Part shown: positions 40,141 to 62,396 of the stretch, piece by piece
Layout of the letters: each line of letters opens with the position of its first letter
How positions within the stretch are numbered: the first letter of the stretch is position 1
Assembly: GCA_963751445.1 (NCBI GenBank)
Contig: CAVVUL010000011.1
Coordinates: 289,023-353,022, forward strand
DNA from: an uncultured Acidobacteriota bacterium
Lineage (GTDB): Bacteria; Acidobacteriota; Vicinamibacteria; Vicinamibacterales; SCN-69-37
Direction: 5' to 3'
DNA length: 64,000 nt
Translations under genes and position numbers: made by a program
The notes under the pieces: generated by a model
Told to the model about the DNA's origin: nothing
Databases searched by the model: none
What the model saw: only the letters and a program-made list of their open reading frames with translations

Positions 40141-40198
40141 CCCGCCGTCACCAGTCGTTACGCGTCGTCACCCGTCGTCACCTGTCGTCACCCGTCGT
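40141..40198. repeat. Decamer array (GTCGTCACCC/GTCGTTACGC units), right arm; ends 1 nt before the udk ATG
   Basis: CCCGCCGTCACCAGTCGTTACGCGTCGTCACCCGTCGTCACCTGTCGTCACCCGTCGT, complementary in sense to 39933-40012. Confidence 0.8.
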
Positions 40199-41814: not shown

Positions 41815-41863
41815 AATGAGAAGGATTGTAGTGCTCCCGCTCCTCCGTCGCGAGGTTTCCCGC

Positions 41864-42918: not shown

Positions 42919-42923
42919 CAGTA

Positions 42924-43125
42924 GAGTTCAGGGTTCCGGGGTTCCGAGGTTCACGGTTCGGTTCACGGTTCCGGGTTCAGGCTCAGGTTCGGGTTCGAGG
43001 TTCAGGATGCGTCGGGAGTTCAAGGCTTCGCCGCAGAACCAGCACCGAACCCAGAACCCGAACCTCTGAACCGTGGAACCGGAACCCCGGAACCCCGGAA
43101 CCCTGGAACCTCGTGAACCTCGTGA
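42924..43125. repeat. GGTTCCGG-type heptamer/octamer arrays arranged as a long imperfect inverted repeat
   Basis: Left arm GAGTTCAGGGTTCCGGGGTTCCGAGGTTCACGGTTCGGTTCACGGTTCCGGGTTCAGG... Right arm ..GAACCGTGGAACCGGAACCCCGGAACCCCGGAACCCTGGAACCTCGTGAACCTCGTGA. It lies between the cysK stop (42916-18) and the 3' end of BNR gene A. Confidence 0.85.
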
Positions 43126-43126
43126 T

Positions 43127-46100
43127 CTACCAGTTCTTCGCCCCGGCAGCGGCACCACCTGAACGACTGCGGCTTGCCGATCGGCGTGACCTGATCGCCG
43201 TTCAGCTTGCCGAGTTGCGCCGTGAAGCGGCCCGGGTTGACGGCGGGACCGCCGCCGCCGCGGCCGCCGCGGCCACCGCCGCCGCCCTGCGCCGCCGCGA
43301 TCTGCGCCGCCATTTCCGGCGTAATCGCGCCCGCTGCGCCGCCGCCCGCCGCGCCGCCACCGCCGCGCCCGCGCCACCGCGCGCCGCGCCCCGCGCCCGC
43401 ACCGCCAGCGCGACCGCCCGCGCCACCCGCGCGCCCGCCGGCGCGTCACCGCGCAGGTTCCACGTCGCGCGATTGATGCCGGGCGTTTCCGGCACATCGA
43501 TGCGGCGCACCTGACGTCCCTGGTCGTCGGAGATCGTCAGCACCAGATTGCCGCTGAAGTCCGGCGCCACGTAGTACGTCAGCTGCGCGCCCACCGGCGG
43601 ATTCGGCGTCGTGAAGTTGCCCCACGCCGCTTCGGTGTAGCCGAACTCGTCGTGAACTGATACGCGTGCCGCAGCGGGAACAACTCCGCCTCGGCCGCGA
43701 GCGCCTGCGCGCTCACTTCGCGCAACGCGCTGTAGTCATCGAGCACGTAGAAGCCGCGCCCGAACGTGCCGAGCACGAGGTCGTTCTCGCGCTTCTGCAC
43801 GACCATGTCGCGCATCTGCGCCACCGGCAGGCCGCCCTTGAGTTGCACCCAATGCGACCCGCCGTCCACCGTGAAGTAGCAGCCCGAACTCGGTGCCCGC
43901 GAAGATCAGGTTGCCGTTCACGTGGTCCTGGATGATCGACCACACCGGGTTGCCGGTTCGGCAAGTCGCCCGCGATCGACCTTGAAGGTGCTGCCGCGGT
44001 CGTCGCTCCGGAACACGTACGGCTTGTAATCGCCCCGCTGCCAGTTGTTCAGCGTCACGAACACGACGTTGGCATTGCGCGGTGACGCGAACACGTCGGA
44101 CACGTACAGCCCGTCGGCCGCGTTCCCGAACGTCGTCGTCTTGCGCCACGTCTTGCCGCCGTCCTCGGTCGACCTGCAGGTTGCCGTCGTCCGTGCCGAC
44201 GTAGATCAGTCCTTCGAGCACCGGCGATTCGTCGAGCGAGACGATCGTGCTGAGCGTCGTCGTCGCGTTGTTGTAGGCGACGGTCGTGGCCGGATCCCAC
44301 ACCTTGCCCATGATCGGGATCACGCGGGGATCGAGCTTGCGCGTGAGGTCGTCGCTGATGGGCGTCCAGCTGTTGCCGCGGTCGTCGCTGCGGTACATCC
44401 GGTTGCTGCCCCAGTAGAGCCGCGTCGGCCGAATGCGGGCTCACGATGTAGGTCACGTCCCAGTTCACGCGCTCGGCCGCGATGCCGCCGCCGCCGCGCC
44501 GCCACGCCCGCCGCCGCCCGCACCGCCACCGCCGCCCGCAGCGCCGCCGCCCCCGGCTCCACCGGCCCTCGGACGGATGCCCGCTGACTGCCCCGTGCGC
44601 AGATCCAGCCGGGTGATCGCGCCTTGCTGCGACGTGGCGTACACGAAGTTCGCGTCTTCCGGATCGTTGCGCGACTGGAATCCGTCGCCGCCGCCGACCG
44701 TGTACCAGTCGCTGGTGCGGATGCCGACGCTGTTCTGCGTCCGGCTCGGGCCGCACTGCGATCCGTTGTCCTGCGCGCCGCCGCACACGTTGTAGAACGG
44801 CTTCGCGTTGTCGACGCTGACGCGGTAGTACTGCGTGATCGGCAGATTGGCGAAGTGCCGCCACGTCTTGCCTTCGTCCCACGACTCGTACAGCCCGCCG
44901 TCGTTGCCGACGATGATGTGGTTCTTGTCCTTCGTGTCGCTCCAGACCTCGTGGTAGTCCACGTGGACGTGGCCGTTCAGGTTCGGCACGGCCGAGAACG
45001 TCTTGCCGCCGTCGCGGCTCCACTCGAGGTTGGTGTTGGCCGACCAGATCGTGTCCGGGCGAATCGGATCGACGTAGAGCTCGTAGTAGTAGCCGGGGTC
45101 GCCGCCGCGATACACGCCGGGCAATCCGCCACCGCGGCCGCCGCCACCCTGCCGGCCCGCGCCCGCACCGGCCGCACCCGCCGCCCGCCGGAGGCGGTGC
45201 TGGCGTCGGCGCCGGTGTCGCGGCCGGCGCGGCGCATCGAGCGGCGCGCCCTGCCGCACCCACGTCGCGCCCGCGTCATCCGAGCGATAGAACCCAGTGT
45301 CGGCCAGCGCGTTGATCAGCGCATAGACGCGCGTCGGCTTCGCCTTGGGGTCGACGCCCATCGCGATGCGGCCCATGTCACCCTTCGGCAGGCCCTTCGT
45401 GAGCTTCGGTCCATGTGCTGCCGCCATTGGTGGACTTGTAGATCCCGCTCTCCGGTCCGCCGCCAATCATCTGGCCGACGCCGCGGCGCCGCTGCCAGGT
45501 CGACGCGTACAGCACGTCCGGGTTGTTCGGGATCGATGTGAATCTCGTTGCCGCCCGTGTCGGCGCTGACGCGATGTTGAGCACCTGCTTCCACGTCTTG
45601 CCGCCGTCGGTGGTCTTGTAGATGCCGCGGTCGCCGCCGGCGGACCACAGCGGCCCTTGCGCTGCGACGTACACGACCTGCGGATTGCGCGGGTCCATCG
45701 CCATGTTGCCGATGTGCTCGGAGTTCTCGAGACCGACGCGCGCCCACGTCTTGCCGGCGTCCGTGGACTTGTAGACGCCGTCGCCGAACATCGCGCTTCG
45801 CGGATTCGAGTTCTCACCCGTGCCGATCCAGAGGATGTTCGAGTCCTTCGGGTCGATCAGGATGCAGCACATGTTGAACGAGCCGGCGTTGTCGAAGATC
45901 GACGTCCAGTCGTTGCCGCGATTCTCGCTCCGCCACACGCCGCCGGCCGCCGTGACGACGTAATACACGTTCGGAGCGATTGCGGATCGACCTCGAAGTC
46001 CGCCACGCGGCCCGTCACGAGGTTCGGACCGAGGCTGCGGAAGGTGAGGCCCGGCGAACACTCGGCGGTCAACCGCGACTGGCTTCCGGCCAGCCTGAGC

Positions 46101-46166
46101 AAATGCCAACACACCGGTCAAGGCGAACTGGCGGCCGATAGCGAACGCTAAGTGGACTCGTTTCAT
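43127..46166 (-). pseudogene. Sortilin/VPS10-like BNR (Asp-box) beta-propeller protein, paralogue A; many frameshifts (at least 8); 3' end unresolved
   Basis: The N-terminus lies in ORF 45378..46166 (..GGVWRSENRGNDWTSIF..YKSTDAGKTWARVG..YKTTDGGKTWKQV..YKSTNGGSTW: repeated SxDxGxTW Asp-boxes). It continues through ORFs 44465..45466, 44055..45263, 43736..44398, 43918..44103, 43579..43869, 43202..43594 and 43020..43313. GGRGG-type low-complexity stretches are present. The final ORF fragment runs to 43020, inside the repeat array. Confidence 0.7.
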
Positions 46167-46170
46167 AGGG

Positions 46171-46352
46171 GCTCCGAGGTTCTGGGGATGTCGGTGAGGT
46201 TCCTGGGTTCCAGGTTCCTTGGTTCCGGGGTTCGCGTCGGTTCTAGGTTCAGGCTTCGCCGTTCCCGGTTCCTAGTTCCAGGTTTCGCGAAGTTCGAACC
46301 CGAACCGTGAACGCCCGAACCCCGGAACCCAGGAACCCGGAACCCCGGAACC
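46171..46352. repeat. GGTTCC-type arrays as an imperfect inverted repeat between the tandem BNR genes
   Basis: Left ..GAGGTTCTGGGG..GAGGTTCCTGGGTTCCAGGTTCCTTGGTTCCGGGGTTCG... Right ..GAACCCGAACCGTGAACGCCCGAACCCCGGAACCCAGGAACCCGGAACCCCGGAACC. It shares the core GTTCAGGCTTCGCCG with the array at 43017-43034. Confidence 0.85.
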
Positions 46353-46363
46353 TGTACGTGCTC

Positions 46364-49300
46364 TTACCTGTACAGAATGTAATTCTGCTCCGGCAGCGGC
46401 ATGACCGTACACGAACTGCGGCTGGCCGATCGGCCGTGAACGTGTCGCCCACGAGTTTGCCGATCACGATGCGATAGCGGCCCGGCTCGGCGGCTGCGCC
46501 GCCTGCGCCGCCGCCGCGTCCGCCGAAGCGCTTGAGGCGGAGCCGCCAAGGGCGCGCCTGCGGCACCCGCCGCCGCCTGCGCCCTGCGCGCCGGCTGCAC
46601 CCGCACCGCCGCCCGCCGCGGCCGCGCCGCGCGCGACTGCGCGCCGCGCCACCGCCACGCCCGCCGCGGCCGCCACCTGCCGCGCCCCTTCACCGCGCAG
46701 GTTCCACGTGGTGCGATGGAATCCCGCGGTCTTGTCGAGCTCGATGCCGACGGAACTGGTTGCCGTTGCGTCCATGATGTTGGCGACGAGCCGCACGTCG
46801 TCCGGCAGGTTCTCGCGGCCACGTTGTAGGTGATGACCGCGCCGATCGGCGGATTCGGCATCGTGTAGTTGCCGCCCAGCGTCGCGAGTCCGGCCGCGCC
46901 GTCCTGCGCCACGCCCCACGGCGTGAACTGATACGCGTGCGGCCGCGTCGGGAACAGCCGCGCTTCCTCGGCCATCGCCTGCGCACTCACTTCGCGCAGC
47001 GCCGAGTAGTCGTCGAGCACCCAGAAGCCGCGACCGAAGGTCGCCATGACGACGTCGACTCTCGCGCTTCTGGAGCTGGAGGTCGCGCACCTGCGCCGGC
47101 GGCATGCCGCCCTTGAGCTGCACCCAGTGGCGCCCGCCGTCGACGGTGAAGAACAGGCCGAACTCGGTGCCCGCAAACAGCAGGTTCGGCGCGATGAGGT
47201 CCTGCGCGATCGCCCACACATCGTGCTTGTGCCGGCAGGTTGCCCGTGATGTTCGTCCAGGTCCGGCCGCGATCGTTGCTGCTGCACGATGTACGGCTTG
47301 TAGTCGCCGCGCTGCCAGTTGTTCAGCGTGACGAAGATCACGTTGGCGTCAATCGGCGATGCGTCCACGTCGGAGACGTACGCCCACTTCGGCACGCCGG
47401 GGAAATCCTCCACGCGCCGCCAGTTGCGCGCCGCCATCCTCGGTGATCTGCACGAGACCATCGTCGGTGCCGACGATGAGCAGGTCTTCCCATCGCGGCG
47501 ATTCCGACGATCGACACGATGTTGCTCAGCGCGGTGGTGGACTCATGCAGCGCGATGGAGCCCTGCCGGCCACACCTTGCCCATGATCGGAATCTCCTGC
47601 CAGTTCAGGTTCCGCGTGAGGTCCGGGCTGATGCGGACCCATGTGGCGCCGCGATCTTCCGTGCGGTAGCAGATACTGGCTGCCCCAATAGAGGCGCGTC
47701 ACCGAGTGATCGCTCGTGATGTAGGGCGCGTCCCAGTTCGGACGATCGCCACCGGCGCCGCCGCCGCGGCCTCCGCCCGCGGCTCCCGCACCGCCGCCCG
47801 CGCCAGCGGCCACCCGCACCCGCTGGCGGCGCCGCGGCCGGCGGCGCCGCCGGCTGGGCCGGCGCCGCCTCATAGATCGCAGGGCGCCGTATTGAAGTTC
47901 GGCCGGATGCCGGTCGCCGCGGCCGGTGCGCCGATCGAACCGCGTCGGCTTGCCGTCCTGCGACGTCGCATAGACGATGTTCGGGTCGCCCTGATCGTGG
48001 CGGCGCAAAGAACCCGTCGCCGCCCTGCGTCATGTACCAGTCGCTGGTCCGAATGCCGAGCGTGTGGTTGGTGCGCGCCGGGCCGCACATCGAGAAGTTG
48101 TCCTGCGTGCCGCCGCACACGGTGTAGAACGGCTGTTCGTTGCCCGCGGACACGCGGTAGAACTGCGTGATCGGCAGATTCGCGAAGAATCGCCAGTCGG
48201 CCAGGTTCTGCGTGCCCTGCTGTCCCGGATTCGCATAGAGCTTGCCGAGGTCGTACGTCTCGTAGACGCCGCCATCGTTGCCGATGATCAGGTGGTCCTT
48301 GTTCGTGAGATCGAACACGACTTCGTGGTGGTCGACGTGCACGGCGAATGCGCCGGACGCCGCGCTCGACACCGACCTGCGACCAGGTGCGGCCGCGCGT
48401 CCTTGCTCCATTCGAAGTTCGTGTTCACCGACCAAATCGTGTCCGGCTGCCACGGATCGACGAAGATCTCCGAGTAGTACGCCGGGCCGCCGCCGCGATA
48501 AATCGACATGGCGGGTCCACGTCACGCCGTTGTCGTCACTCTTGTAGAAGCCCATGCCGTCGTCAGCCGTCGGTGCTGGTGGCAATGGAGACGGCGGCGT
48601 GGCCGCCGCCGGAGCGGCCGCCTGTCCGCCCGCGCGTCCCGCCGGCGGCGCCGCTGCGCCAGCGCCGGCCGCGCCCGCACCCGCGGCACCCGCCGCACCC
48701 GCGGCACCTGCCGGACCCGCCGGACCCGCCCCTCGCCCTGCGCCGCGCCCGCCGCCGCCCGCCGTCTTCGCATCAATCAACGCGTAAATGCGGCCCGGCT
48801 TCTTCGGATCGACGGCCAGCGCGATGCGGCCCACTTCGCCGGGCGGCAGGCCGTTGGTCAGCTTCGTCCAGTTCTTGCCGGCATTCGTCGTCTTGAACAC
48901 GCCGCCGTCCGGGACCGCCGCCAATCATCTGCCCGACATGGCGCCGGCGCTGATACGTGCCCGCGAACATGATGTCGGGGTTCTTCGGGTCGAACACGAC
49001 GTCGGTCACGCCGGTGTCGTCGTTGATGAACAGCGACTGCGTCCACGTCGCGCCGCCATCGGTGGTCTTGTACACGCCCCGTTCTCCGCCTTCCGAGAAC
49101 AACGGCCCCTGGGCGGCCACGAACACCGTGTTGGAGTTGCGCGGGTCAATGACGATCTTGCCGATGTGTTCGGACTTGTCGAGGCCGACGCGCTTCCAGG
49201 TCTTGCCGGCATCGAGGGACTTGTAGAGGCCCGTGCCGAAGTGCGCGCTGCGCTGGCTGGCGTTCTCACCGGTGCCGAGCCACACGACGTTGGAATCCTT

Positions 49301-49621
49301 GGGATCCACGACGACGCAGCAGAGATTGAAGGCATCGGCGGCGCCGGACCCTGGGAAGATGGCCTCGAAGGTGATGCCGCGATTCGAGGTCTTCCACAAC
49401 CCGCCGAAGGCCGAGGCGACGTACCAGACACTCGGATTCTTCGGATCGATTTCGATGTCCTGCACGCGGCCGGTCACGAGCGCGGGACCGATATTGCGAA
49501 CCTGCAAACTTGCGAAGACGTCGGCGTTCATCCGGTCGGCGCCGGCCGGGGTCTGACCCGCACCGATAGCCACCATCAGGACCACCAGGGCGGACACTGC
49601 AACGAGGTGCACACGTTTCAT
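46364..49621 (-). pseudogene. Sortilin/VPS10-like BNR beta-propeller protein, paralogue B; many frameshifts
   Basis: The N-terminus lies in ORF 48773..49621 (signal MKRVHLVAVSALVVLMVAIGA; ..GGLWKTSNRGITFEAIF..YKSLDAGKTWKRVG..YKTTDGGATWTQS..). Further pieces lie in ORFs 47605..48924, 47526..48008, 46464..47219 and 46364..47461. The C-terminus is ..TVMPLPEQNYILYR, stop TAA 46364-66. Confidence 0.75.
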
Positions 49622-49786
49622 GGGAGATACTCCAGGACGACAGGGCGACTTGCCGGAGGCATTCTACTCCCAAAGACTGCGGCAAGACTCGTCTTTTGTG
49701 GGACTTTGGGCCGCTGGGGGTCAGCGATCCAGTGCTACATTAGCCGGAATGCGACAGGCTGCTGAGACTGCCCGCACGCCCTGGCA

Positions 49787-50708
49787 ATGAATGCTCCGGC
49801 CATTGTCGCCACGGCACCCCGAGATGCGCTGCGCGCGTTTCTCCTGCAACATCGAAACCGCGACGGTGGGTGGGGCTACTTTCCTCAAAGGCGAGTCGCA
49901 TCGAACCGACGTGCTGGGCGCTGCTGGCCTTGTCGCGGGCGATCGGAGCGGCCCATCGAAATGGACGTGCTACCGCGCTGGCCGAGCCGGGGCGGCTGGT
50001 TCATCGACGTCGCCGGTACCCCGCTGAACTACGCCTTCAACGCGCTCGCGGCGATCGCCGCGCTCACCCATCGCGACGGTGGGTCGGACGCACTCGCGGT
50101 GGACCCGCGGGGCGGCTTCTGGAGGTCCGGGGCGTCAGGCTCGGCCAAGGGACGGCTATCAGGCAGGACAACAGTCTCCAGGCTTGGCCGTGGATGGACC
50201 AGACGTTCAGCTGGGTTGAACCGACGAGCTGTGCCTCCTGCTCGTGAAGAAGTGCGGAATCGCCTCCCTGCGGCGCGTCGCCGCTGAACGCATCGAAATC
50301 GGCGAACGCATGTTGAGGGACCGTGCGTGTGGTGCCGGCGGCTGGAACTATGGCGGGTCGAATGTCTACGGTCAGGAGCTGTTCCCCTACGTGCCGACGA
50401 CGGCGCTGGGCCTGCTGGCGATGCAGGACCACCCGGGGGATCCAATCGTGGCCCGCGCGCTGGCGTGGCTCAGCGAAGGTGGCGGCGGAGTCCTCGAGCG
50501 CTGGCCCTGGCGTATTGCGCTGCTCGCCTGCCGCGCGTCGGCCAGGCGCCGGCCGCCTGTGCTCGCCGATCGACGCGGCACGATCCGGGTCACCGATGGC
50601 ATGCTGGGTTTGGCCACGGCCTCTATGCGCTGGCAGGTCGCCTATTGGGAAGCGGCTTCGCATGTGACGGATGTGCCCGCCGGCTCCGGTCACGCGCGGG
50701 CGGCATGA
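49787..50708 (+). pseudogene. Prenyltransferase/squalene-cyclase-repeat (alpha-alpha toroid) protein, at least three frameshifts; 3' end uncertain
   Basis: MNAPAIVATAPRDALRAFLLQHRNRDGGWGYF (ORF 49787..) / ..ASRIEPTCWALLALS..QDNSLQAWPWMDQTFSWVEPTSCA (ORF 49870..50247) / ..ERMLRDRACGAGGWNYGGSNVYGQELFPYVPTTALGLLAM (ORF 50244..50708). The DGGW/GGW motifs are typical of this repeat family. Confidence 0.6.
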
Positions 50709-51679
50709 CCCGCCGCCATTCCTGGCTGCGCTGTCGCTGCCGCTGCTGGCCAGCGCGTGTGACCGGCCGCCGTACGATCGCCGCGAGTTCGCCGTCGCCG
50801 CGACCTCAGCCGTCGGGCTCTTACGCGGCGGCGAACTACGCGGTGGATTTCGCCGATGTCATCGTCCGCGGGATTCCGCGAGCTCCGCGTCGACCTGCGC
50901 GGGACAGCGCGTGCTGCTCAAGCCGAACATGGTCGAGTACGAGCCCGGCACGGCGATCAACACGCATCCGCTCGTGGTCGCCGGCGCCGCGGTCGCGTCC
51001 CTGCGGGCCGGCGCGGCCGAGGTGCGATCGGCGAGGGCCCGGGCCACCGCCGCGACATCGAGTACCTGCTCGACGCCACGGGCCTCGGCGAGCGCCTGGC
51101 GGACACCGGCTGCGCATTCACCGACCTCAACCACGACGATGTGCGTCTGGCGGCGCTGCGCGAGCGGCTTCACGCGGACTCGGCGGCTCGCGCTGCCGGC
51201 GAGCTGCTGCGCGTCGGACTTCGTGATCTCGATGCCGAAGCTGAAGACGCATCACTGGGCGGGCATGACGTGCAGCATGAAGAACCTGTTCGGCGTGGTG
51301 CCGGGCGCCGTGTACGGCTGGCCGAAGAACGTGCTGCACGTGCACGGCATCCACGAACTCGATCCTCGATCTGGCCGCGACCGTCCGGCCGCAGTTCGCG
51401 ATCGTCGATGCCGTCACGGCGATGGAAGGCGACGGGCCGATCATGGGCCGCGCGCGGCCGCTGGGGTTCATCGCCATGGGGGCCGACCCGGTCGCGGTCG
51501 ACGCGACCTGCGCGCGCATCATCGGCCTCGATCCGCTCAAGATCGGCTACCTGCGCGCCGCGGGGGATTTTCTCGGCCTCCTGGACGCCGCGCGCATCGA
51601 ACAGCGCGGCGAGGCGCCGTCGCGGTACGCGACCCGGTTCGACATGATCCCGGATCTCCAGCATCTGAGGCTCCCGTGA
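50705..51679 (+). pseudogene. DUF362-domain protein with Tat/lipoprotein-like signal, about six frameshifts
   Basis: MTRRH / FLAALSLPLLASACDRPPY.. / ..RVLLKPNMVEYEPGTAINTHPLVVAGAAVASLRAGAAEV / RIGEGPGHRRDIEYLLDATGLGERLADTGCAFTDLNHDDV / ..FVISMPKLKTHHWAGMTCSMKNLFGVVPGAVYGWPKNVLH / ..MEGDGPIMGRARPLGFIAMGADPVAVDATCARIIGLDP... The pieces lie in ORFs 50327.., 50671.., 50856.. and 51422..51679. Confidence 0.7.
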
Positions 51680-51700
51680 CGGCGGCAGTCTCGATCGTCC

Positions 51701-54958: not shown

Positions 54959-55033
54959 TCTGCGCTAGACTCCATTCCCGTGGCGCCCGGGCACTTTCTT
55001 CAACCGCTGCTGGCCGCGGACGCGCCGCCGGCG

Positions 55034-55396
55034 ATGCTGGTCGCTCACGACCCCGCTCGCCCGCTCGCGACGACGATTGAAACGGCCTTCGACTCCGCCA
55101 GCCGCAAGCGCGGCCTGCTGGGCCGGACGTTGCTCGCTCGGGATACCGCTTTCATCATCGCACCGTGCAGCGCGATCCACACATTCTCGATGCGCTTTCC
55201 CATCGACGTCATTTTTGTCACGGGAGACGGGCGTGTCCTGAAGATCCGGCATGACATGCCCGCGTCCCGGACCACGATGGCCTTTGGCGCATTCGCCGCG
55301 ATCGAAATGGCGGCCGGTGAAGCGGAGCGCCACGGCCTCCACGTGGGCGACTGTCTCAGGATCCAGCCCGCGCCAGCGCCGCCTCCGCCCGCTTGA
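55034..55396 (+). CDS. DUF192-family protein
   Basis: C-terminal 120 aa of ORF 53810..55396: ..SASRKRGLLGRTLLARDTAFIIAPCSAIHTFSMRFPIDVIFVTGDGRVLKI..AIEMAAGEAERHGLHVGD.., the DUF192 (COG1430) pattern. It overlaps the 3' end of BNR gene C by ~40 nt (convergent). Confidence 0.7.
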   Translation: MLVAHDPARPLATTIETAFDSASRKRGLLGRTLLARDTAFIIAPCSAIHTFSMRFPIDVIFVTGDGRVLKIRHDMPASRTTMAFGAFAAIEMAAGEAERHGLHVGDCLRIQPAPAPPPPA

Positions 55397-58366
55397 CGGC
55401 GGCCGTGACCGCCGCGTCCACCGAGGGCAACGGCTTGGCGTCCGCTTCCTGGAGCGCATCCAGCAAATCCGGCAGGGGCGCGTAGGCCGCCTCGAGGTCG
55501 GCCGCCACTTGCCGGAGGGCGCGTGGCGGTTTCGCCCGACGCGCGGCCCAGCCGTTCGGCGACGTCGGCGCGGGCCCGCGCCAGGCGCGACAGCGTCAGC
55601 GTGACCGATCGCGAGAGCGCGAACTGCGCGGTCAGGTCCAACACCGGCGTCTTCACGCGCGGGTCCATCCGCACGTTGACCACGCGCCGGTACGACTGTC
55701 CGTCCACGGTCAACCGGACTTGATAGTTGCCCGGCAGGACGAAGATGCCTTCGCGGCGTCTTCGGCGTGTTCCGCGCGACCGCCGCGATCGGATAGGTGA
55801 ACTGCTCGACGTCGGGCGGACGCGTAACGCACGTTCCACACGAAGCGATGGAGCCCGGCTGTCTTCTGCAGCCGCGGCGTCGGCCGGATCCAGTAGTCGG
55901 GAATGTTGCGGCCGGCCACCGGCTCGTCGGGCGGATCGTCGCTCGAGTAGCGGCGAACGGTGTCGCCCGTCGCGTTGTCGATGATCTCGAGCAGCACGGG
56001 CGACGTCGCGTCCGCCTCAGCAGGTAGCTGATCACCACGCCGTCGGGCGGATTGGGCGCGGCCGGCTCGTCGGGCGGCAACGGCGTGTCGGTGTTCTTGT
56101 TCCACCGGAATCGCCACGCGACCGGCGGCGCGAACAGGAACGCCGGGGCGCGCGACGATGTCGGCCGTGATCTGGCGGAGCGGCATGATGTCATCCAGGA
56201 TCCAGAACCCGCGGCCGTGCGTGCCCGCGACAGGTCCGAGTCCTTGATGCCAGATCGCGGATCGACGTGGCCGGCATGTTCAGCCGCAGCGCCTGCCAGT
56301 GGTCGCCGTCGTCGAACGACACGAACACGGACTGTTCGCTGCCCGCGAACAGCAGGCCGCGGCGCTGCGGGTCCTCGCGCACGACGTTGATCACGCCGCC
56401 GTCGGGCAGGCCGCGCACGATGTCGGTCCACGTCTTGCCGCCGTCGCGCGTGCGTAGGACGTGCGGCCGCAGGTCGTCCAGCCGCAGCGTATTGATGGCC
56501 GCGTACGCCGTGTTGGGATCGAAGTGCGAGGCCTCGAGGATCGAGACCTTGGCCCATGGCGCGAGCGCCGGCGGCGTGACGTCCGTCCAGTTCGTGCCGC
56601 CGTTGCGCGTCACGTGAATGAGCCCGTCGTCGGTGCCGGCCCAGATCAGGTTCGGGTCGACCGGCGACGGCGCGATGGCGTAGATCGACGCCGCGCTGGA
56701 CCGGCCGCGCGGTCGGTGCCGTCCGGTACACGCCGACGGTCGCCGGCGGCTCCCACGTTTCCCGCGACAGGTCGGGACTGATCAGCGTCCAGGTCGACCC
56801 GCCGTTGGCGGTCTTCCACAGCAGGTTGGTCGCGAAGAACAGCGTGCGCGGATCGACCGGCGAAAACTGCACCGGCGCGGTGCGGAGGACGCGCGTAGTG
56901 CGCGTCGCGCGGCGGTCGCCACCTGCTGCGCCTGGCCGGTGCGACGGTCGAAGCGCGAGAGCTTGCCGCCGTACACGACGTCCGGGATCCTGCGGATCCG
57001 GCGCGACGTAGCCGTATTCCTCGGCGCCGACCGGAAGCCACTCGCGGAACGTGATCTGCCCATGATCGCCGCGGCTCGCCACGCAGGCCGACCCGCTCTC
57101 CTGCTGCCCGCCGCAGACGCGGTAGGGAAACGCGTTGTCGGCGGTCACGTGGTAGAACTGCGCCGTCGGCTGGTTGTACCAGGAGCCCCAGGTCTCGCCG
57201 CCGTTGACCGACACGATCGCGCCCTGGTCGGACGTCAGGATCATCACGTCGGGCGACGCGGGATTGATCCAGATCTTCTGGTAGTCGTCGCCGCCGGGCG
57301 CGCCGCGGAAGCCGGTGAACGTGCGGCCCCCGTCGGTGGATTTCCACGTCACGATCGACGGCACAAAGACGATGTCCGGGTTGGTCGGGATGCACGCGGA
57401 TGTCGGCGGCGTCGGCCGGACGCCCGGCCACGCGCGCGTCCTCGTTCACCCGCGTCCAGGTCTCGCCGGCATCATCCGATCGGTAGATGCCGCCGAGCGC
57501 GCGCGCGTCCACCGACGGCAAACAGCCGGCGCCGATCGCTGGGCGCGACGGTGATGCCGATGCGGCCTAGGCCGTCGGCGAATGTCGGCAGCCCCCGCGT
57601 GAGCGGCCGCCAGGTCGCGCCGCCGTCGGTGGACTTGAACAGCCCGCTGCCGGGCCCGGTCCAGACGCCGTTCTCCCACGGGCCCCTGCCGCGACTCCAG
57701 CAGCGCGGCGTACACCACGTTCGCGATCCACGGATCGAACGCGAGGTCGATGCCGCCCGTGTTCTCGTCGCGGTACAGCACCTTCTCGAACGTGCGGCCG
57801 CCGTCGGTCGACCGGAAGATGCCGCGCTCGGCATTCGGGCCGTACGGATGCCCCAGCACCGCGACGAACAGGCGATTCGGATTCTTCGGGTCGACGAGAA
57901 TCTGCGGAATCTGCTGGCCATCGCGCAGGCCGAGGTGCGTCCACGTCTTGCCGGCGTCGGTCGACTTGTAGATGCCGTCGCCGGTGGAGAGATCGGGCCG
58001 CTGCATCCCTTCCCCGCTGCCGACGTAGATGACGTTGGGATTCGACGGCGCGATCGCGATGGCGCCGATGGACCCGGTCGGCTGGTCGTCGAAGATCGGC
58101 GTCCACGTCCGGCCGTAGTCGTTCGTCTTCCACACGCCGCCGTTCACGGCGCCGACATAGAACACGTTCGGCTGGGCCGGGATGCCGTCCACGGCTTTCG
58201 TGCGGCCGCCGCGAAACGGCCCAATCGGACGCCAGCGGAATTCCGAAAACAGCGCCGGATCGAAGGTGACGGCCTGCTGGGGCGCGTCGTGGCGGCCGGC
58301 CGCGTGGACCGCGACCCACCCGCCAACCAATAGAGCGGCAACAAAGACGAATCGACGGACTGGCAT
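55356..58366 (-). pseudogene. BNR/Asp-box beta-propeller protein (sortilin-like), paralogue C; many frameshifts
   Basis: ORF 57446..58366: signal MPVRRFVFVAALLVGGWVAVHA, ..GGVWKTNDYGRTWTPIF..YKSTDAGKTWTHLG..FRSTDGGRTFEKV..FKSTDGGATW... It continues through ORFs 56646..57521, 54965..57364, 56191..56613, 55710..56186 and 55045..55839. My own translation of the end gives ..LRQVAADLEAAYAPLPDLLDALQEADAKPLPSVDAAVTAAVKRAEAALARAGS, stop at 55356-58. Confidence 0.7.
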
Positions 58367-58402
58367 GCGCTCAGAGTGTACGCCGAGCCGACGTTCCCGG
58401 TC

Positions 58403-61183
58403 TCACTTCACCGCAAGCAGGTGGACCTGCTGATCGGCGGTGAGCACAAACAGGCGCGTCCCGTCAGGACTGAACGCCTTCAGCACGACATCGTGCGCGA
58501 ACACCAGGTCGGTCCTACGGCGCAGCGTCGTGAGGTCGTAGAGGACGACTCGCCCGCCCCCGGATTCAACGGCGAGCAGGCCCGTGGCGGCGCTGACCAG
58601 CGGCCACGATCCGAACGCGTAGCCCTGGAGTTCGCCGCTGGCCAGCGAGTAGACCAACACCCGATCCAGCGAATCGGTCACGAGCACCAGATCGCCGCTC
58701 GTCATGACGCGGCGGATATGGAAGGAGCCCTTGCCGGTCTCGAGCAGCATGCGGCCCCTCACCGCGCCCGATTGCGCATCGAGCACCTCGAGCAGGTGAT
58801 CGCCGGCGAGGTCGCCCATCTTCACCCGGCTGCGGAGGTCCGGGTTCAGCCGGAGGTACTTCGCGACCCGCAGCCGAATCGGCTGCCCACGACAGCACGA
58901 GCGCATCGCTGTCGACGCCGGGCCAGAAGTCGTCCGGCGGGTTCTTGGCGTAGCCCTTCTTCCACAGCGCCGTCGCCGTACGCACGTCGCGCACCTCGAA
59001 CTCGAGACCCGTGGGCCGCATCGTGTTGGGGGGCAGCAATCGGACGACCATCAGCCGCCGGCCATACTGCGAGGCGTAGGGCTCGGTGATTTGACCGGCA
59101 CCGCCCACCACGCGGCTTGGCCCATCCAGGCGCATGATCGCGCGCGGATCCGCTCCGGCCTTCGGCAAGTCCGCGAACAACGTGCCGGCGTCATCGATGA
59201 ACGCCCCGTCAAAATCGCGCACCATCGCTACGCGTTCGCCGCTGCCCGTGTCCCACATCACGCCGCGTGTGCGCGCCGACAACGCTACCCACTTGAAATC
59301 CGCGGACACGGCGGCTGTCCGTACGCGGGCCAGGCTCGTGAACGGCAGGCTGACGCTCGCGCGCACCTGGTTGCCGTCCATCGCATACAACCCGAGGTCC
59401 CCGGTTCCGCGTTCCGCGGCGAACGCGTCGCCGTAGACGTCGATCGCCTCGGACGCATTGCCCTTCACGACGAGCTTCCTGCTCAGATCGAACACGCCGA
59501 CGGCGTACTTCTGGAACGGCCGGATGAACACGACGTCGCCCTTCGTCGCCCCTTCCAGGCCGCCCGGCGTCAACGTGAACGTCTCGCCGACCTCGCCCGC
59601 GGGGAATCGCACCACGCCGGACTTGCCCGGGTCGGCGACGTTGAAGCCGACGAGCCGGTCGGGACCGATGAAGGCAAACGCCGAGGTCACCATGTTGCGC
59701 GCGCTGCCCTTGAGGGTGATGACCCCGCGGTTGGTCAGGTCGTAGGCGATGGCGCTGTTGCTCGCGTACCCCTGCGAGCCGGCCACGAAGAACCGTCCGT
59801 CGGGCGAGAACCCCATGGTGACCGCGGCATTCGTTCGCGGCATGAGGACGCCGCCGAGCAAGGCGGCCAGTTCCGCCGTGGGGTTGAAGGACTCGAAGCC
59901 CTTCTTCTGGAACACGGCCTGTCCGGTGGCCACATCGATGAGCGACAGCTCGTCGTTCGCATCCAGGCACGCGATGGTGCGGCCGTCCGGCGCCAGCGCG
60001 GTGAACCGGCAGACCGTCTGCCAGTACAAATCCCGGACTTCCGTGAGCTTGCGCGTGGCCACGTTCCACCGCTCGACCCGCAAGTCGCTGGTATGAAAGA
60101 CCACGTCCGCCGAGTCGGTGGTGAACTGCGCCCCCTGGGCGTCGGGCGCGTCGATGCGGAAGAGCACGGCGAGCGGCTCGCGCGACAGCACCGAGATGCC
60201 CGCGTCGTCCTGCGCAATCAGGAACCGGCCGTCGGGGCTGAACCGGAGGCGGGTGACTTCTTCACGAAGCGGGGCGAGGTCCTTCTGGCTCGCCAGGCCA
60301 GGCAGGGATTCCTTGCGCGCGGCGACGGAGGACGCCACGACGGCGGCCTGCCACTCGCGGTACGCCTGATCGCGGGCCGGTGTGGTGGCCTCGGCGCAGC
60401 CGGCCGGCAGCGTGCCCACGGCCTTGACCATTTCGCCGAGCCGCTTGGCGTCGGGGCTGGTCGTGCCGAACATCCGCGACACGACGCTGCCGGTCTTGCC
60501 GCCGGTCGCGAACAGGCGGTCGAACAACGTGACGAAGGCCTTGGGGTCGTAGCCGGACGCGGCGACGATGAACAGGCCGATCCGGTCCGCTTCGACCTGG
60601 TCGCGCCGTTCCCGGTCGGCGCCGCCGAAGACGCCGGGCTTTCGCGCGGCATTGTCCATGAGGCGGTTGTATTTGGCGAAGATGTCGTTGCGATCGCCAA
60701 CCTCCGTGACGCCGACCACATCCTTCAACTGGCGGGTCATGTCGATGGTGTGCTGACGGGCGACCAGATGGCCCAGCTCGTGCCCCATCACGCCGGCCAG
60801 CTCGTCCTCGGAGCGCGTGGACGCGATGAGTTTGCGCGACACGTAGACGCGCCCGCCCGCCAACGCGAACGCGTTCGCATCAGGAATATCAATCAGGCGG
60901 AACTGAAAGTGGAGGTCGGAGGGCGGCAAATGCGAGACGAGTCGGACGCCGACGTCCGCGAGGTGCGGCGTCACCGTGTCGTCATCGATGACCCGGAGCC
61001 AGGATTCATACCGCTCGGCGATGGCATCACCGAGGTCATTTTCCTGAGCGATGGAGAAGATATTCGGCTCGGTGCCTGCGCCGGGGCCGCGGCCCGGCAC
61101 GGGGCCTGGGCGGCAGGAATTCCGTGCGATGCGACGACGGCGAGGACGATCGCGAAGCACCATGCGAGCAGAATCCGCCTCAT
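58403..61183 (-). pseudogene. Secreted M48-family zinc metalloprotease fused to a large beta-propeller (WD40/PD40-like) region, two frameshifts (~61090, ~58900)
   Basis: Signal MRRILLAWCFAIVLAVVASHG (ORF 60971..61183). ORF 58566..61163 holds ..NAFALAGGRVYVSRKLI..ELAGVMGHELGHLVARQH (HExxH) and then ~600 aa of repeated ..SPDGRF.. blades. The C-terminus lies in ORF 58403..58906 (..FSPDGTRLFVLTADQQVHLLAVK). Confidence 0.75.
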
Positions 61184-61213
61184 GACAACTGAGGATCTTA
61201 CGGCGGTCGAACG

Positions 61214-61242
61214 CGCCCGCGGCGCAAAATCCGCCGCGGGCG
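61214..61242. terminator. 11-bp perfect GC hairpin downstream of the B2-like gene (terminator-like, no clear T-tract)
   Basis: CGCCCGCGGCG-CAAAATC-CGCCGCGGGCG, 35 nt after the stop at 61277. Confidence 0.4.
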
Positions 61243-61276
61243 ATTTACCGCATGTTCGCGTCCCCCGCGAACGCGG

Positions 61277-61705
61277 TCACCGGTCCTCCCACGAGAGGAT
61301 TTCGGCAAATCGGGCGATGTTCTCCGGGCGATCGAGCAGCGTCTGTCCTGAGCACTCGATCCAGGCGTGCGCGGCGAAGCGTCCTTCGGGCTTCGCCACG
61401 CCGATGCGGATCGACGAGCGGCGACCCGAGCACGCCAGCAGGAACTGCAGCGCCAGCGACTGGGTCAGGCACGTCGCGAACGGCACCGCACGACACGCGG
61501 TCCGCACGGCCCACGCCAGCCGCTCCGGCGTCAGACGATTCATGTTCGCCGGGAACGCGGCCGGGAGCCACGTGGCGCGCAACCAGCGCCGCACCGTCGC
61601 GCAATCCACGACCCACAGCGCCACGCGAATGCCGGCCACGAGCAGCACAAGGCGCGGCAGCAGCGCCCGTTCCTCGGGAGCGAGGCGCCTGAACCGGCGC
61701 ACCAT
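61277..61705 (-). CDS. Lasso-peptide biosynthesis B2-like protein (transglutaminase-core-3 / McjB C-terminal cysteine-protease fold), orphan
   Basis: ORF 61277..61777, probable start MVRRFRRLAPEERALL. The hallmark is CLTQSLALQFLLACSGRRSSIRIGVAKPEGRFAAHAWIECSGQTLLD: catalytic Cys, then the F-x-AHAW-(I/V)-E-x-x-G motif. Confidence 0.75.
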   Translation of the reverse strand: MVRRFRRLAPEERALLPRLVLLVAGIRVALWVVDCATVRRWLRATWLPAAFPANMNRLTPERLAWAVRTACRAVPFATCLTQSLALQFLLACSGRRSSIRIGVAKPEGRFAAHAWIECSGQTLLDRPENIARFAEILSWEDR

Positions 61706-61712
61706 CGACGAA

Positions 61713-62114
61713 TCAGAGGGCGGCACGGTCCGGCCCAGCCTCGGCGACCGGTCGCACCGCAGGAAGCCGGGCGACATGCGCGGTCACGCCGGCGGCGATC
61801 ACGAGCAGCAGCACACGCAGCCACCAGGCATGCGCCGTCCAGATCATCGTCGAACCGATGCTGGCCCACAGCAGGACGAGCGTGATGACCTTCGCGCGCC
61901 GAGGCATGCCCCGATTGCTGCGGACGTACACGCCGAGGACGCGGTGGTTGACGAGCTTCTGGTAGAACCGATCCGAGCTGCGCGCGTAGCAGGTCGCCGC
62001 CAGCAGCAGGAAGACCGTCGTCGGCATCAGCGGCAGGAAGATGCCAATCAGGCCGAGCGCGACACACAAGGTCCCGCACACGATGAGCAGGGTGCGCATC
62101 AGGGACGAGGGCAT
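61713..62114 (-). CDS. DUF454 (YbaN-family) inner-membrane protein
   Basis: ..LGLIGIFLPLMPTTVFLLLAATCYARSSDRFYQKLVNHRVLG.. is the family signature. Four TM segments. Its stop lies 5 nt from the B2-like start. Confidence 0.75.
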   Translation of the reverse strand: MPSSLMRTLLIVCGTLCVALGLIGIFLPLMPTTVFLLLAATCYARSSDRFYQKLVNHRVLGVYVRSNRGMPRRAKVITLVLLWASIGSTMIWTAHAWWLRVLLLVIAAGVTAHVARLPAVRPVAEAGPDRAAL

Positions 62115-62125
62115 GGGTAATGGTA

Positions 62126-62396
62126 GCGGGTTCCGGGGTTCCGAGGTTCCGAGGTTCCGGGGTTCCGGTTCCAGGGTTCAGGGGTTCGGGTTCGAGGTTC
62201 GGGGTTCGGGGTTCCAGGTTCGGGGTTCGGGGTTCCAGGTTCGGGGTTCCAGGTTCGGGGTTCGGGTTCCAGGTTCGGGTTCGTGATGGCTTGCACCGTG
62301 AACCGTGAACCTCGAACCTGGAACCTCGAACCCGAACCTGGGAACCTCGGAACCGGAACCCCGGAACCTCGGAACCCCGGAACCCCGGAACCTCCG
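62126..62396. repeat. Largest GGTTCCGG/GGTTCGGG array pair (left ~158 nt, right ~99 nt inverted) filling the whole spacer between two minus-strand genes
   Basis: GGGTTCCGGGGTTCCGAGGTTCCGAGGTTCCGGGGTTCCGGTTCCAGGGTTCAGGGGTTCGGG...GTGATGGCTTGCACCGT...GAACCTCGAACCTGGAACCTCGAACCCGAACCTGGGAACCTCGGAACCGGAACCCCGGAACC... Confidence 0.9.

Follow-up and report, generated by a model that had tools for sequence, protein, structure and literature searches.

Inverted tandem arrays of short units fill intergenic spacers in Vicinamibacterales

Short G-rich tandem repeats that meet their own complement between genes are known from other bacteria. A Xanthomonas genome contains 70-75 convergent inverted pairs of GGGAATC repeats; these G-rich heptamer repeats differ in length and sequence between species, are not associated with mobile elements and have no known function (PMC4692102). 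Cyanobacterial STRR hairpins also lie between genes, and roles in transcript stability or translational coupling have been suggested for them (PMC2670836). Here we describe elements of the same kind in a 64,000-nt stretch of DNA from a soil Acidobacteriota of the Vicinamibacterales (the window). They are intergenic, include convergent inverted pairs and obey a positional rule identical to that of the Xanthomonas/Nostoc heptamer repeats, and they are likewise intergenic repeat hairpins, as the STRR elements are. A sequence-only reading of the window had noticed them at three gene boundaries and suggested that they may be a lineage-specific class of intergenic element. The observation itself is confirmed and the interpretation is partly supported: the class has described relatives, none of them with a known function, and it is a general one with many units.

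Three spacers, which we label E1 (42924-43125), E2 (46171-46353) and E3 (62126-62396), consist of GGTTCNNG unit arrays followed by complementary GAACCNNG units. The unit is 7-8 nt long and G-rich (consensus GGGGTTCC/GGTTCNNG), the two arrays stand in convergent orientation, and on either DNA strand a G-rich array comes first, then a short apex and then a C-rich array. Tandem Repeats Finder (TRF) detected arrays of period 7-8 on both halves of all three elements, and the window has 23 copies of GGTTCNNGGTTC, all inside E1-E3, compared with an expectation of 0.21. The inverted arms reach 98 nt with 87% complementarity. Predicted RNA minimum free energies are -126.9 (E1), -116.2 (E2) and -214.4 (E3) kcal/mol, with folding z-scores of -8.9, -8.1 and -14.9, respectively, against dinucleotide shuffles, bearing out the description of these regions as both microsatellite-like and self-complementary.

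The E1 5′ arm is a G-rich run of GGTTC-type 7-8-nt units (42924-43006), separated by an apex (43007-43035) with the core GTTCAAGGCTTCGCCG, a mini-hairpin GGC-TTC-GCC, from a C-rich 3′ arm of GAACC-type units (43036-43125). Viewed on the plus strand, the 5′ arm of E2 (46171-46251) opens with a small side hairpin (46171-46195) and continues in GGTTCC-type units from 46197; the apex (46252-46293) contains GTTCAGGCTTCGCCG, the core common to E1, and the 3′ arm (46294-46353) is made of GAACCCCG units. In the same view E3 has approximately 21 GGTTC-type units (62126-62283), the apex TGATGGCTTGC (62284-62294) and approximately 13 GAACC-type units (62295-62396) whose order mirrors the 5′ arm. The core GTTCA(A)GGCTTCGCCG, previously noticed in two of the elements, was located at 43017-43032 in E1 and 46248-46262 in E2; it would be best explained by co-duplication with the tandem paralogous sortilin/BNR-like genes, directly 3′ of which both elements lie. 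Because the window consensus contains many indels (cysK is spread across three reading frames, and frameshifts interrupt the sortilin-like genes), part of the 7- versus 8-nt unit variation may be sequencing error, although one 7-nt unit of E3 is mirrored at the matching place in both arms.

The elements fill their spacers, as had been claimed. E1 lies between convergent genes, starting 5 nt past the TGA (42916-42918) of a cysK-like gene (plus strand) and ending 1 nt short of the minus-strand TAG (43127-43129) of a sortilin/BNR-like gene. E2 adjoins the ATG (46164-46166) of a downstream minus-strand sortilin-like gene and ends 10 nt from the stop codon (46364-46366) of the upstream minus-strand sortilin paralog, whose product ends in QNYILYR; a minus-strand GGAG Shine-Dalgarno-like motif is present in segment 46167-46180. 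E3 starts 11 nt from the ATG (62112-62114) of a minus-strand DUF454 gene and ends 1 nt before the stop codon (62398-62400) of a minus-strand aldehyde dehydrogenase gene. The shadow open reading frames reported through the arrays do exist and are spurious.

In agreement with the view that this is not the usual REP or terminator architecture, E1-E3 have no U-tract or T-tract and no conserved 20-40-nt palindromic unit, and a search of E1-E3 against Rfam gave no match. Judged by the features tested, they are not canonical intrinsic terminators, REPs or MITEs.

Besides E1-E3, three further inverted tandem arrays, built from other units, and three single arrays occur in the window. One inverted array, (CACGGAGGG)n ... 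(TCCGTGCC)n, lies between co-directional minus-strand genes (23974-24134), and another, (ACGACGGGA)n ... (GTTCCCGTC)n, between the convergent udk (plus strand) and metallo-beta-lactamase-fold (minus strand) genes (40824-40973). The third, (GACGGGTAAC)n and (CACCCGTCGT)n around a lower-GC core of approximately 130 nt (39933-40198), fills a divergent spacer and adjoins both start codons, the ATG at 39929-39931 of a minus-strand DHDPS-family gene and the ATG at 40199 of a plus-strand uridine kinase gene. The single arrays comprise (CACGGAGG)n on the minus strand (30698-30728), approximately 20 nt past a minus-strand stop codon; (ACGACAGGTA)n on the minus strand (36583-36635), directly past a stop codon; and (GGTCCAG)n (minus-strand feature, 10107-10144), on the sense strand directly past a glycosyltransferase stop codon. 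The last had been called a weaker relative of E1-E3 at 10108-10137; the array is real, and it is single, unpaired, of another unit and forms no hairpin. Next after the array at 36583-36635 comes a canonical hairpin+T7 terminator (36553-36582), showing that ordinary U-tract terminators exist in this genome. E1-E3 make up a single unit family within a wider class that uses many unit sequences. Periods in this class differ between elements (7, 8, 9 and 10 nt), a few units (GGTTCCGG, ACGACGGGTA and CACGGAGGG) are used recurrently, and several families (GTCAGAA, CATGAAGGA and AACTTAG) contain no G-runs at all.

All the window's arrays have the G/purine-rich arm 5′, which places the G-rich arm after stop codons and the C-rich arm ahead of start codons; the three single arrays (3/3) are G-rich on the sense strand right past a stop codon. 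Among the paired arrays found in a genome search, GGTTC-first outnumbered GAACC-first 13:0, and approximately 90% of cases combined a positive GC skew in the left arm with a negative one in the right arm. The spacers were approximately 16 co-directional, approximately 11 convergent and 3 divergent, with context assigned for most loci by a crude codon-position GC method that made one wrong call (L040). Two cases that were verified take up the whole spacer between divergent start codons, an argument against the elements being purely terminators; the proposed association with 3′ ends is not exclusive.

In a uniform census, inverted tandem arrays numbered 9.4 per 100 kb for the window, 4.6 for its Vicinamibacterales relatives and 0.22 for distant lineages, a strong enrichment in one lineage that supports this part of the sequence-only reading. 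The genome search with (GGTTCCGG)2.75 returned approximately 41 Acidobacteriota among the 107 matches listed, with up to 7 loci per MAG among those matches, and all paired arrays (13/13) were in Acidobacteriota loci. Searching related genomes, one of the checks proposed for the elements, revealed the same architecture in many Vicinamibacterales MAGs, assembled independently from Illumina (k141/NODE/JGI contigs) and long reads. E1-E3 are therefore genuine, lineage-enriched elements.

Orthologous spacers reveal rapid turnover. The spacer between the aldehyde dehydrogenase (Aldedh) and DUF454 genes is 283 nt long in the window and 243 nt at L001, 41 nt with two relic units at L193, and 9 nt at L195; on the contig that encodes P0002, a close aldehyde dehydrogenase homologue, it measures 44 nt. 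The window, L001 and L193 have the right junction GGAACCC-(A)GCTA in common, indicating that the element there is orthologous. The Peptidase_S9-to-dUTPase spacer carries hairpins of five different units in five genomes, with none at L195, and the spacer after the sortilin paralog is occupied by a GGTTCC hairpin in the window, by one of (GTCAGAA)n at L001 and by a REP-like palindrome at L192. These comparisons show the elements to be dispensable spacer fillers that are quickly gained, reshaped and lost. Within elements, shuffling the unit order of the right arm weakened the fold: shuffles matching the observed energy numbered 7/200 for E1, 1/200 for E2 and 0/200 each for E3, L001 (11539-11763) and L097. 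One arm genuinely mirrors the other in the order of its units.

The explanation we favour, at roughly an even chance, is that the elements are dispensable palindromic simple-sequence repeats, shaped by slippage and by copying from arm to arm; their ability to fold back would be why they are tolerated. The arrays would lengthen and shorten by replication slippage, and the arms would be kept mirrored by intramolecular template switching, that is, arm-to-arm copying, and/or by selection for self-folding. As a pattern, the repeats are retained in one polarity only, with the G/purine-rich arm after a stop codon and the C-rich arm before a start codon, and as fold-backs at whose base the flanking stop and start codons lie next to each other. 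Two observations sit uneasily with this explanation. In-situ slippage leaves the seeding of GGGGTTCC in dozens of spacers and many genomes unexplained, and some copying or dispersal mechanism behind its spread is implied. A hairpin that recurs at one orthologous spacer with different units could also mean positive selection for the structure.

Such selection is the core of a possible but doubtful alternative, in which the elements are selected RNA structures (U-tract-independent terminators or attenuators, 3′-end stabilisers or Shine-Dalgarno-independent stop-start coupling devices) and tandem units are merely the way such stems grow. The five units at the S9-to-dUTPase spacer and the three hairpin types after the sortilin paralog fit it, as do arms that stay mirrored while orthologues diverge, the excess of convergent and co-directional over divergent spacers, and several downstream genes that have no Shine-Dalgarno sequence and a hairpin base 0-15 nt from the start codon; action of this sort has been proposed for STRR hairpins (PMC2670836). 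However, the same spacers in close relatives span 9-44 nt without a hairpin, U-tracts are missing, canonical terminators are present elsewhere in the window, the arms of the two filled divergent spacers would lie on different transcripts, and homogenisation within each arm has made the arms at L036 diverge. The sense RNA was the more stable in 8/18 comparisons, the mean difference favoured antisense, and the three largest elements have their G.U pairs on the antisense strand, which if anything speaks against selection on the sense transcript.

That the elements are non-autonomous mobile DNA, fold-back, MITE-like or REP-like, with tandem arrays as terminal inverted repeats and moved in trans by an enzyme that acts on hairpin single-stranded DNA, such as a RAYT or an IS200/IS605-type HUH enzyme, seems unlikely. 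One unit family does occupy many spacers per genome across genera, presence at orthologous sites is patchy, and GTAG stands at the outer foot of E1 on both ends, of E3 on one end and of the L001 element (11539), as in GTAG-tagged REPs (PMC3733652); the same genomes also have a separate family of GTAG-tagged REP-like palindromes. Yet these GTAG occurrences overlap stop codons, and the empty, relic and filled sites compared show no target-site duplication. The elements have no internal sequence in common, with unrelated apexes except in the co-duplicated E1 and E2; many unrelated unit families have the same architecture; the viral contigs searched gave no matches; and the Xanthomonas relatives lack an association with mobile elements (PMC4692102).

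We think it improbable that the elements act as G-quadruplexes or i-motifs, four-stranded DNA or RNA near gene ends, a mode of action that has been put forward for GGGAATC and GGGGAYT repeats. (GGGGTTCC)n qualifies as a canonical G-quadruplex motif, the window has 10 such motifs against 1.7 expected, 4/10 of them in inverted-array arms, and G-quadruplex-forming repeats share the positional rule (PMC4692102), but E1 and E3 fall short of four G3+ tracts with loops of ≤7 nt, several unit families have no G-runs, and the complementary arm is a competitor because the duplex it forms is far more stable. If the elements were recombination sites, or binding-site arrays for a nucleoid-associated or regulatory protein, the regular tandem spacing and the few recurrent units would be accounted for; we regard this as very improbable, given that units and periods differ between elements, that the periods do not match the phase of the helical repeat, and that polarity and self-complementarity are conserved but sequence is not. 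Five unrelated units at one orthologous spacer in five genomes make sequence-specific protein binding, suggested by the sequence-only reading, unlikely as a general explanation. An artefact of assembling or sequencing low-complexity DNA is barely credible: the indel-rich consensus makes individual 7- or 8-nt lengths not all reliable, but short-read and long-read assemblies made independently, from different samples and in different studies, agree on the architecture, an orthologous spacer retains its junction among them, and unit variants are mirrored between arms.

The GGTTC family of E1-E3 is the commonest unit family of a class abundant in Vicinamibacterales genomes. If these elements are, as we favour, dispensable simple-sequence repeats that fold back, they may still have a role at the RNA level as a 3′ stem-loop or coupling device. 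On transcription, the entire spacer would become one long stem-loop, whose effect is likely modulatory, giving the upstream message a 3′ structure that could cause pausing or partial termination or act as an exonuclease barrier. In co-directional spacers the stem-loop would also occlude the leader, and the downstream gene could then be translated only if the upstream ribosome opened the stem at its base.

E1, E2 and E3, the three GGTTC-type palindromic arrays, share one layout, in which 7-8-nt units of the GGTTCNNG type lead into a short apex and are followed by complementary GAACCNNG units. E1 (42924-43125) lies between the TGA (42916-42918) of a cysteine-synthase-like gene on the plus strand and the TAG (43127-43129) of a sortilin/BNR-like gene on the minus strand. 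E2 (46171-46353) separates the stop codon (46364-46366) of a minus-strand sortilin-like paralog from the ATG (46164-46166) of the next paralog, and E3 (62126-62396) separates the stop codon (62398-62400) of a minus-strand aldehyde dehydrogenase (Aldedh) gene from the ATG (62112-62114) of a DUF454 gene. The elements wholly occupy these spacers, and E2 and E3 sit between co-directional genes. Tandem Repeats Finder (TRF) resolved both halves of each element as arrays of period 7-8, and GGTTCNNGGTTC occurs 23 times in the window (0.21 expected), every match falling within E1-E3. The 5′ arms had GC skews of +0.08 to +0.39 and the 3′ arms negative values. Single-strand folding yielded −126.9 (E1), −116.2 (E2) and −214.4 kcal/mol (E3), with z-scores against dinucleotide shuffles of −8.9, −8.1 and −14.9, respectively. 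Coordinates, TRF, unit counts and folding thus bear out the sequence-only reading of these regions as 7-8-nt units followed by complementary units that fill the spacer. The central core that it had noted in two elements, GTTCA(A)GGCTTCGCCG, is real and common to E1 and E2; because both directly adjoin the 3′ ends of tandem paralogs in matching orientation, the core is explained by co-duplication of gene and element. Apart from this pair, the apexes are unrelated among copies.

The architecture of E1-E3 is genuine: other samples show it in independent assemblies, both short-read (k141, NODE, JGI) and long-read, and the orthologous Aldedh-to-DUF454 spacer of L001, a locus from another genome (86% protein identity), shows the same architecture with the same right-hand junction, GGAACCC-(A)GCTA. 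This recurrence excludes low-complexity misassembly, a concern raised when the arrays were described. The window's Aldedh matches a protein of a 1.39-Mb NCBI/ENA contig at 100% identity, and its named relatives are Vicinamibacterales MAGs. Indels are frequent in the window consensus, with cysK spread over three frames and frameshifts in the sortilin-like genes. The cysK-like and sortilin/BNR-like genes (41633-42918, 43127-46166 and 46364-49600) are broken into several frames with shifts in codon-position GC phase, indicating frequent consensus indel errors or pseudogenes. Such an indel load is typical of long-read MAGs, and with a consensus so rich in indels, single unit lengths of 7 versus 8 nt are not all trustworthy. 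A home-made codon-usage gene caller was unreliable on frameshifted sequence, missing udk (uridine kinase) and DUF454, and was replaced by codon-position GC phase calls with Pfam checks. Two other repeats were observed in the window. At 26728-27134, a 126-nt unit is repeated 3.2 times at 100% identity, beginning 13 nt past a tRNA-Leu(CAG) gene (26629-26715), and may reflect duplication at an integration site or an artefact of long-read assembly. An 84-nt palindromic segment (AAAAGTCGAATCCGGGATTCTTTTTTCG...) occurs twice with 100% identity, at 4076-4159 and 4403-4486; the copies, together with the approximately 26 nt after each, flank 244 nt of apparent coding sequence, a local duplication or a misassembly.

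E1-E3 are part of a wider class with many unit sequences. The window holds three inverted tandem arrays built from other units, at 23974-24134 ((CACGGAGGG)n/(TCCGTGCC)n), 39933-40198 ((GACGGGTAAC)n/(CACCCGTCGT)n, in a divergent spacer) and 40824-40973 ((ACGACGGGA)n/(GTTCCCGTC)n), and three single arrays, at 10107, 30698 and 36583, each directly after a stop codon. The first of these (10107-10144), previously taken for a weaker relative of E1-E3, is a genuine array but a single one made of a different unit, right after a glycosyltransferase stop codon. All nine window arrays (9/9) lie in spacers between genes supported by Pfam or codon bias. In a uniform census, based on self-BLAST for palindromes with TRF arrays required in both halves, the density of elements per 100 kb was 9.4 for the window, 4.6 for Vicinamibacterales loci anchored on Aldedh and 0.22 for distant lineages (445 kb); the Aldedh-anchored metagenome scan, whose listed matches were mostly distant lineages at 59-79% identity, was used solely as a negative control. 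A scan with (GGTTCCGG)2.75 against 185,579 species genomes returned at least 107 loci. Among the matches listed, approximately 41 loci belong to Acidobacteriota or Vicinamibacteria, with at most seven from one MAG, and the Acidobacteriota loci contain approximately 40 long hairpins, mostly of tandem units with many sequences and periods of 7-10 nt; those from other phyla (Streptomyces, Paenibacillus, Burkholderia, Phycisphaeraceae, Acidimicrobiia and others) are single unpaired arrays. Related genomes and census together reveal enrichment in the lineage and many units beyond the GGTTC type.

Perfect single (GGGGTTCC)n arrays occur, among the matches listed, in unrelated phyla: Burkholderia multivorans (L017), Paenibacillus (L069 and L039), Streptomyces pratisoli (L074), Phycisphaeraceae (L051 and L032), an Acidimicrobiia MAG (L055, L024 and L080), Myxococcaceae (L037) and Desulfobacteraceae (L106). 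They often stand directly 3′ of stop codons and often adjoin other G-rich 7-8-mer arrays, such as (GAGAGCCC)n in Burkholderia. A 63%-GC metagenome contig (L130) also carries inverted tandem arrays, at 2797-2902 and approximately 4525-4600; the latter, (GGCKTGAG)n/(CCCAAGCC)n, follows the Aldedh stop codon, and an (AATTCTC)n/(GAGAATT)n pair upstream of the gene has the opposite, pyrimidine-first polarity.

All 13 GGTTC/GAACC pairs are GGTTC-first (13:0), and across all unit families a G- or purine-rich 5′ arm is paired with a C-rich 3′ arm in approximately 90% of cases. Owing to the palindromic structure, either strand reads a G-rich array after stop codons and a C-rich array before start codons; the three single arrays follow the stop-codon half of this rule. 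Shuffling the unit order of the right arm weakened the fold: the observed energy was matched by 7 of 200 shuffles for E1, 1 of 200 for E2 and 0 of 200 each for E3, the L001 element at 11539-11763 and the element of L097, indicating that the arms are true mirror copies and not two independent arrays. At L036 5829-6086 the arms have been homogenised separately, the left being mostly GGTTCCGG and the right mostly CCGCAACC with one mismatch per unit, a pattern that shows within-arm concerted evolution outrunning arm-to-arm matching. Approximately 30 elements could be classified by spacer context, from a small, biased locus set with crude strand calls: approximately 11 convergent, approximately 16 co-directional and 3 divergent. 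Two divergent cases were verified by Pfam, namely window 39933-40198, which touches the start codons of both a DHDPS-family gene and the uridine kinase gene, and L036 5829-6086, flanked by a YegS/DAGK gene and a trypsin-like protease gene.

The comparison of orthologous spacers is the most informative new point: a given spacer may keep its architecture but be built from another unit, or may carry no element. The Aldedh-to-DUF454 spacer is 283 nt long in the window and 243 nt in L001, with a hairpin in both; it is 41 nt in L193, where two relic units (GGAATCCCCGGAACCC) remain beside the common junction, 44 nt in the contig encoding P0002 (a close Aldedh homologue), 9 nt in L195, and 97 nt of unrelated sequence in L192. 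The Peptidase S9-to-dUTPase spacer carries hairpins made from five units in five genomes (GGTTCCGG, GGGTCCAA, CATGAAGGA, a GGAG-rich unit and CTTATTCC), and in all of them purines dominate the arm next to the stop codon and pyrimidines the arm that reaches the start codon; in L195 this spacer is 33 nt with no array. The region 3′ of the sortilin paralog ending ...QNYILYR* holds a GGTTCC hairpin in the window, a (GTCAGAA)n hairpin in L001 and a REP-like palindrome in L192. Architecture and polarity thus recur at orthologous spacers and sequence does not, and this variation indicates that the elements are dispensable and are often gained, remodelled and lost.

Feature by feature, the elements match a known kind of intergenic repeat. 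Rehm et al. (2015) described non-coding intergenic G-rich heptamer repeats, GGGAATC in Xanthomonas and GGGGAYT in Nostoc, whose G-rich strand coincides with the coding strand up to 50 bp past a stop codon, or with the non-coding strand ahead of an ORF (PMC4692102). These repeats are rare between divergent ORFs, most are transcribed, 70-75 convergent inverted pairs per Xanthomonas genome can form stem-loops, and repeat type is preserved between species whereas length and sequence differ; their function is unknown (PMC4692102). The elements studied here likewise consist of short head-to-tail units (periods of 7-8 nt by TRF) that are G-rich on one strand, are strongly non-coding and include convergent pairs able to form stem-loops or cruciforms. 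They also obey the same positional rule (G-rich strand at most 50 bp away, on the coding strand past a stop codon or on the non-coding strand ahead of an ORF), which holds for all nine arrays of the window, both the six inverted arrays (E1-E3 included) and the three single ones. However, their units (GGTTCNNG, ACGACGGGTA, CACGGAGGG and others) do not fit GGGNATC or GGGGAYT, which makes them repeats of this kind from a different sequence family. They are set apart by their unit sequences (GGGGTTCC among others; periods run from 7 to 10 nt), by their phylum and by their size, with arms of up to approximately 21 units and elements reaching 270 nt where the known repeats prefer 4 units. Here the inverted pair is also the dominant form, the entire spacer is occupied, and several unrelated unit families, some of which lack G-runs, share the architecture; mirrored unit order and unit replacement at orthologous spacers are also documented here. 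The sequence-only reading, correct in its description, was partly right in its interpretation: the departure from usual REP or terminator architecture stood, but the proposed lineage-specific class has relatives of the same kind elsewhere.

The STRR families were reportedly defined by Mazel et al. in 1990 through specific heptamers of heterocystous cyanobacteria. STRR are tandem units of approximately 7 bp that form intergenic hairpins, for example between hupS and hupL, with proposed but unproven roles in transcript stability or translational coupling (PMC2670836). E2 and E3 resemble them as hairpin-forming arrays of similar unit length between co-directional genes, as STRR occupy spacers between co-transcribed genes, but the elements here have different units, are GC-rich and far longer, and come from a Vicinamibacterales MAG of another phylum, which places them outside STRR as defined by heptanucleotide and host. 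The TAACTGA heptamer repeats of Beggiatoaceae, Cyanobacteria and Bacteroidetes adjoin start codons and are AT-rich, short, devoid of hairpin architecture and direct only, with one indirect set among 169 (MacGregor 2015; PMC4679880). Both kinds are intergenic heptamer-class arrays that end a few nucleotides from the starts of genes lacking canonical ribosome-binding sites and have a patchy phylogeny with no known transfer mechanism; the elements described here differ in being inverted hairpin arrays. In the open-access literature we found no description of such repeats in Vicinamibacteria or Acidobacteriota.

The best-supported reading is that the elements are palindromic simple-sequence repeats. 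Mirror order, turnover and polarity are observed; as to the mutational mechanisms and the selective filter, we infer that the arrays would evolve locally through slippage, that their arms would be held mirrored via arm-to-arm copying and/or selection for self-folding, and that they would persist solely in the polarity and fold-back form that is harmless to flanking gene expression. Exact-protein look-ups for strain variants, made with the window's Aldedh, DUF454 and udk products, found no record. In-situ slippage does not account for the seeding of the same unit in many spacers and genomes, which keeps alive the rival view that the elements are mobile. Fold-back elements are exemplified by the FB elements of Drosophila. 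Palindromic microsatellites are known from Fusarium mitochondria (PMC7218506). Both resemble the present elements in having inverted arms of short tandem sub-repeats, in being optional among close relatives and in their association with indels, but they are eukaryotic or organellar, and no evidence of a transposase or of target-site duplication was found here. At the Aldedh-to-DUF454 site, where L195 is empty, L193 holds a relic and L001 and the window are filled, no target-site duplication was detected; the elements share no conserved internal sequence and had no match in the viral contigs searched. The absence of target-site duplication at this site and the apexes unrelated among copies make a MITE or fold-back transposable element unlikely.

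G-quadruplex formation by (GGGGTTCC)n is possible. Perfect (GGGGTTCC)n, the minus-strand arm of E2 and the arms at 39934 and 40830 contain at least four G3+ tracts with short loops, but E1 and E3 fail with loops of at most 7 nt, and because several unit families lack G-runs, such structures cannot be the common denominator.

A purely adaptive role as terminator or message stabiliser is weakened by spacers that are empty in close relatives, by the divergent cases, by the missing U-tract and by the lack of a sense-strand bias. GC-rich hairpins right after stop codons, often between convergent genes, do recall intrinsic terminators, but the stems have 5-10 times the length that termination requires, and the elements at window 39933-40198 and L036 5829-6086 fill start-to-start spacers. 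Neither strand of E1-E3 has a T-run after either arm, and a terminator consensus scan found none at E1 or E2 (a sigma-70 promoter and terminator scan of 39800-46500 was otherwise uninformative). A canonical hairpin with a T7 tract occurs elsewhere in the window, at 36553-36582. Rfam, applied to the whole window at the gathering score, reported one tRNA only and no family at the elements. In comparisons of sense and antisense folds and G·U pairs, made as a test for RNA-level selection, no sense bias emerged: sense RNA was the more stable in 8 of 18 cases. In the three largest GGTTCC elements of co-directional spacers (E3, L001 9322-9512 and L001 11539-11763), GAGG of the sense 5′ arm lies opposite CCCC of the 3′ arm, a directional asymmetry that gives 10-16 G·U pairs in antisense RNA versus 1-2 in sense RNA; no statistical meaning can be given to the apparent antisense excess, since the unit variants are amplified copies.

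Under the palindromic simple-sequence reading, a spacer would, if transcribed, have to collapse into one stem-loop, which makes plausible a modulatory role, predicted from sequence, in which the element would serve the upstream message as a 3′ stem-loop and would couple downstream translation. A stronger version, which we consider improbable, would make the elements a sequence-agnostic, structure-selected intercistronic device of a weak-Shine-Dalgarno lineage. The fold would bring the upstream stop codon beside the downstream start codon, downstream translation would need a terminating ribosome to open the stem (strict coupling or shunting), and, at convergent genes, the same stem would end transcripts from both directions. 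Stem length would be tuned spacer by spacer through rapid slippage and arm-to-arm copying, so that orthologous spacers would keep the architecture while the unit changes.

REP sequences are conserved imperfect palindromes of 20-40 bp, and those with GTAG/CGTC tags are mobilised by RAYTs (PMC3733652; PMC1525189). Like REPs and BIMEs, for which termination and mRNA-stability roles have been proposed, the elements are extragenic, high-copy and hairpin-forming, mainly at 3′ ends or between co-directional genes; they differ as arrays of a 7-8-nt unit with no conserved palindromic unit, and only E1 and E2 share an apex. The GTAG tag is inconsistent, occurring at both feet of E1 and one foot each of E3 and the L001 element at 11539, where it overlaps or neighbours stop codons, and being absent from E2 and the other copies. 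A separate REP-like family (GTAGGGGACGGGTCTCAA...) is present in the window, unrelated to E1-E3: near-perfect palindromes of approximately 80-90 nt with the sequence GTAG-GGGACGGGTCTCAAyTGTGGAAAACTCTGTGGACTTT..., directly after stop codons, at 19717-19806 and 21692-21773, with further copies at L192 8675-8750, L099 2845-2956 and L076 6722-6790. The L192 copy occupies the counterpart of the window's E2 spacer, and the family looks like a GTAG-tagged REP-like element (compare PMC3733652). Coding repeats are rejected by stop codons and frames (the shadow ORFs, encoding GSGVPGFRG-like peptides, are spurious), CRISPR by units that are too short and lack spacers, and tRNA T-arm derivatives by the lack of a stem.

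Approximately one spacer in eight carries such an element in the window; if this held genome-wide, each genome would contain several hundred hairpins of 100-270 nt. Long palindromes are normally attacked by SbcCD, and hairpins in the hundreds, if present, would affect operon structure, transcript ends, genome stability and assembly quality; the arrays attract indel errors in long-read MAGs and produce spurious ORFs. Few soil bacteria are more abundant than Vicinamibacterales, whose genetics has barely been studied. The lineage is a good system in which to ask if selection on RNA structure or self-propagation as DNA explains palindromic microsatellites, a question that applies equally to the Xanthomonas and Nostoc repeats and to STRR.
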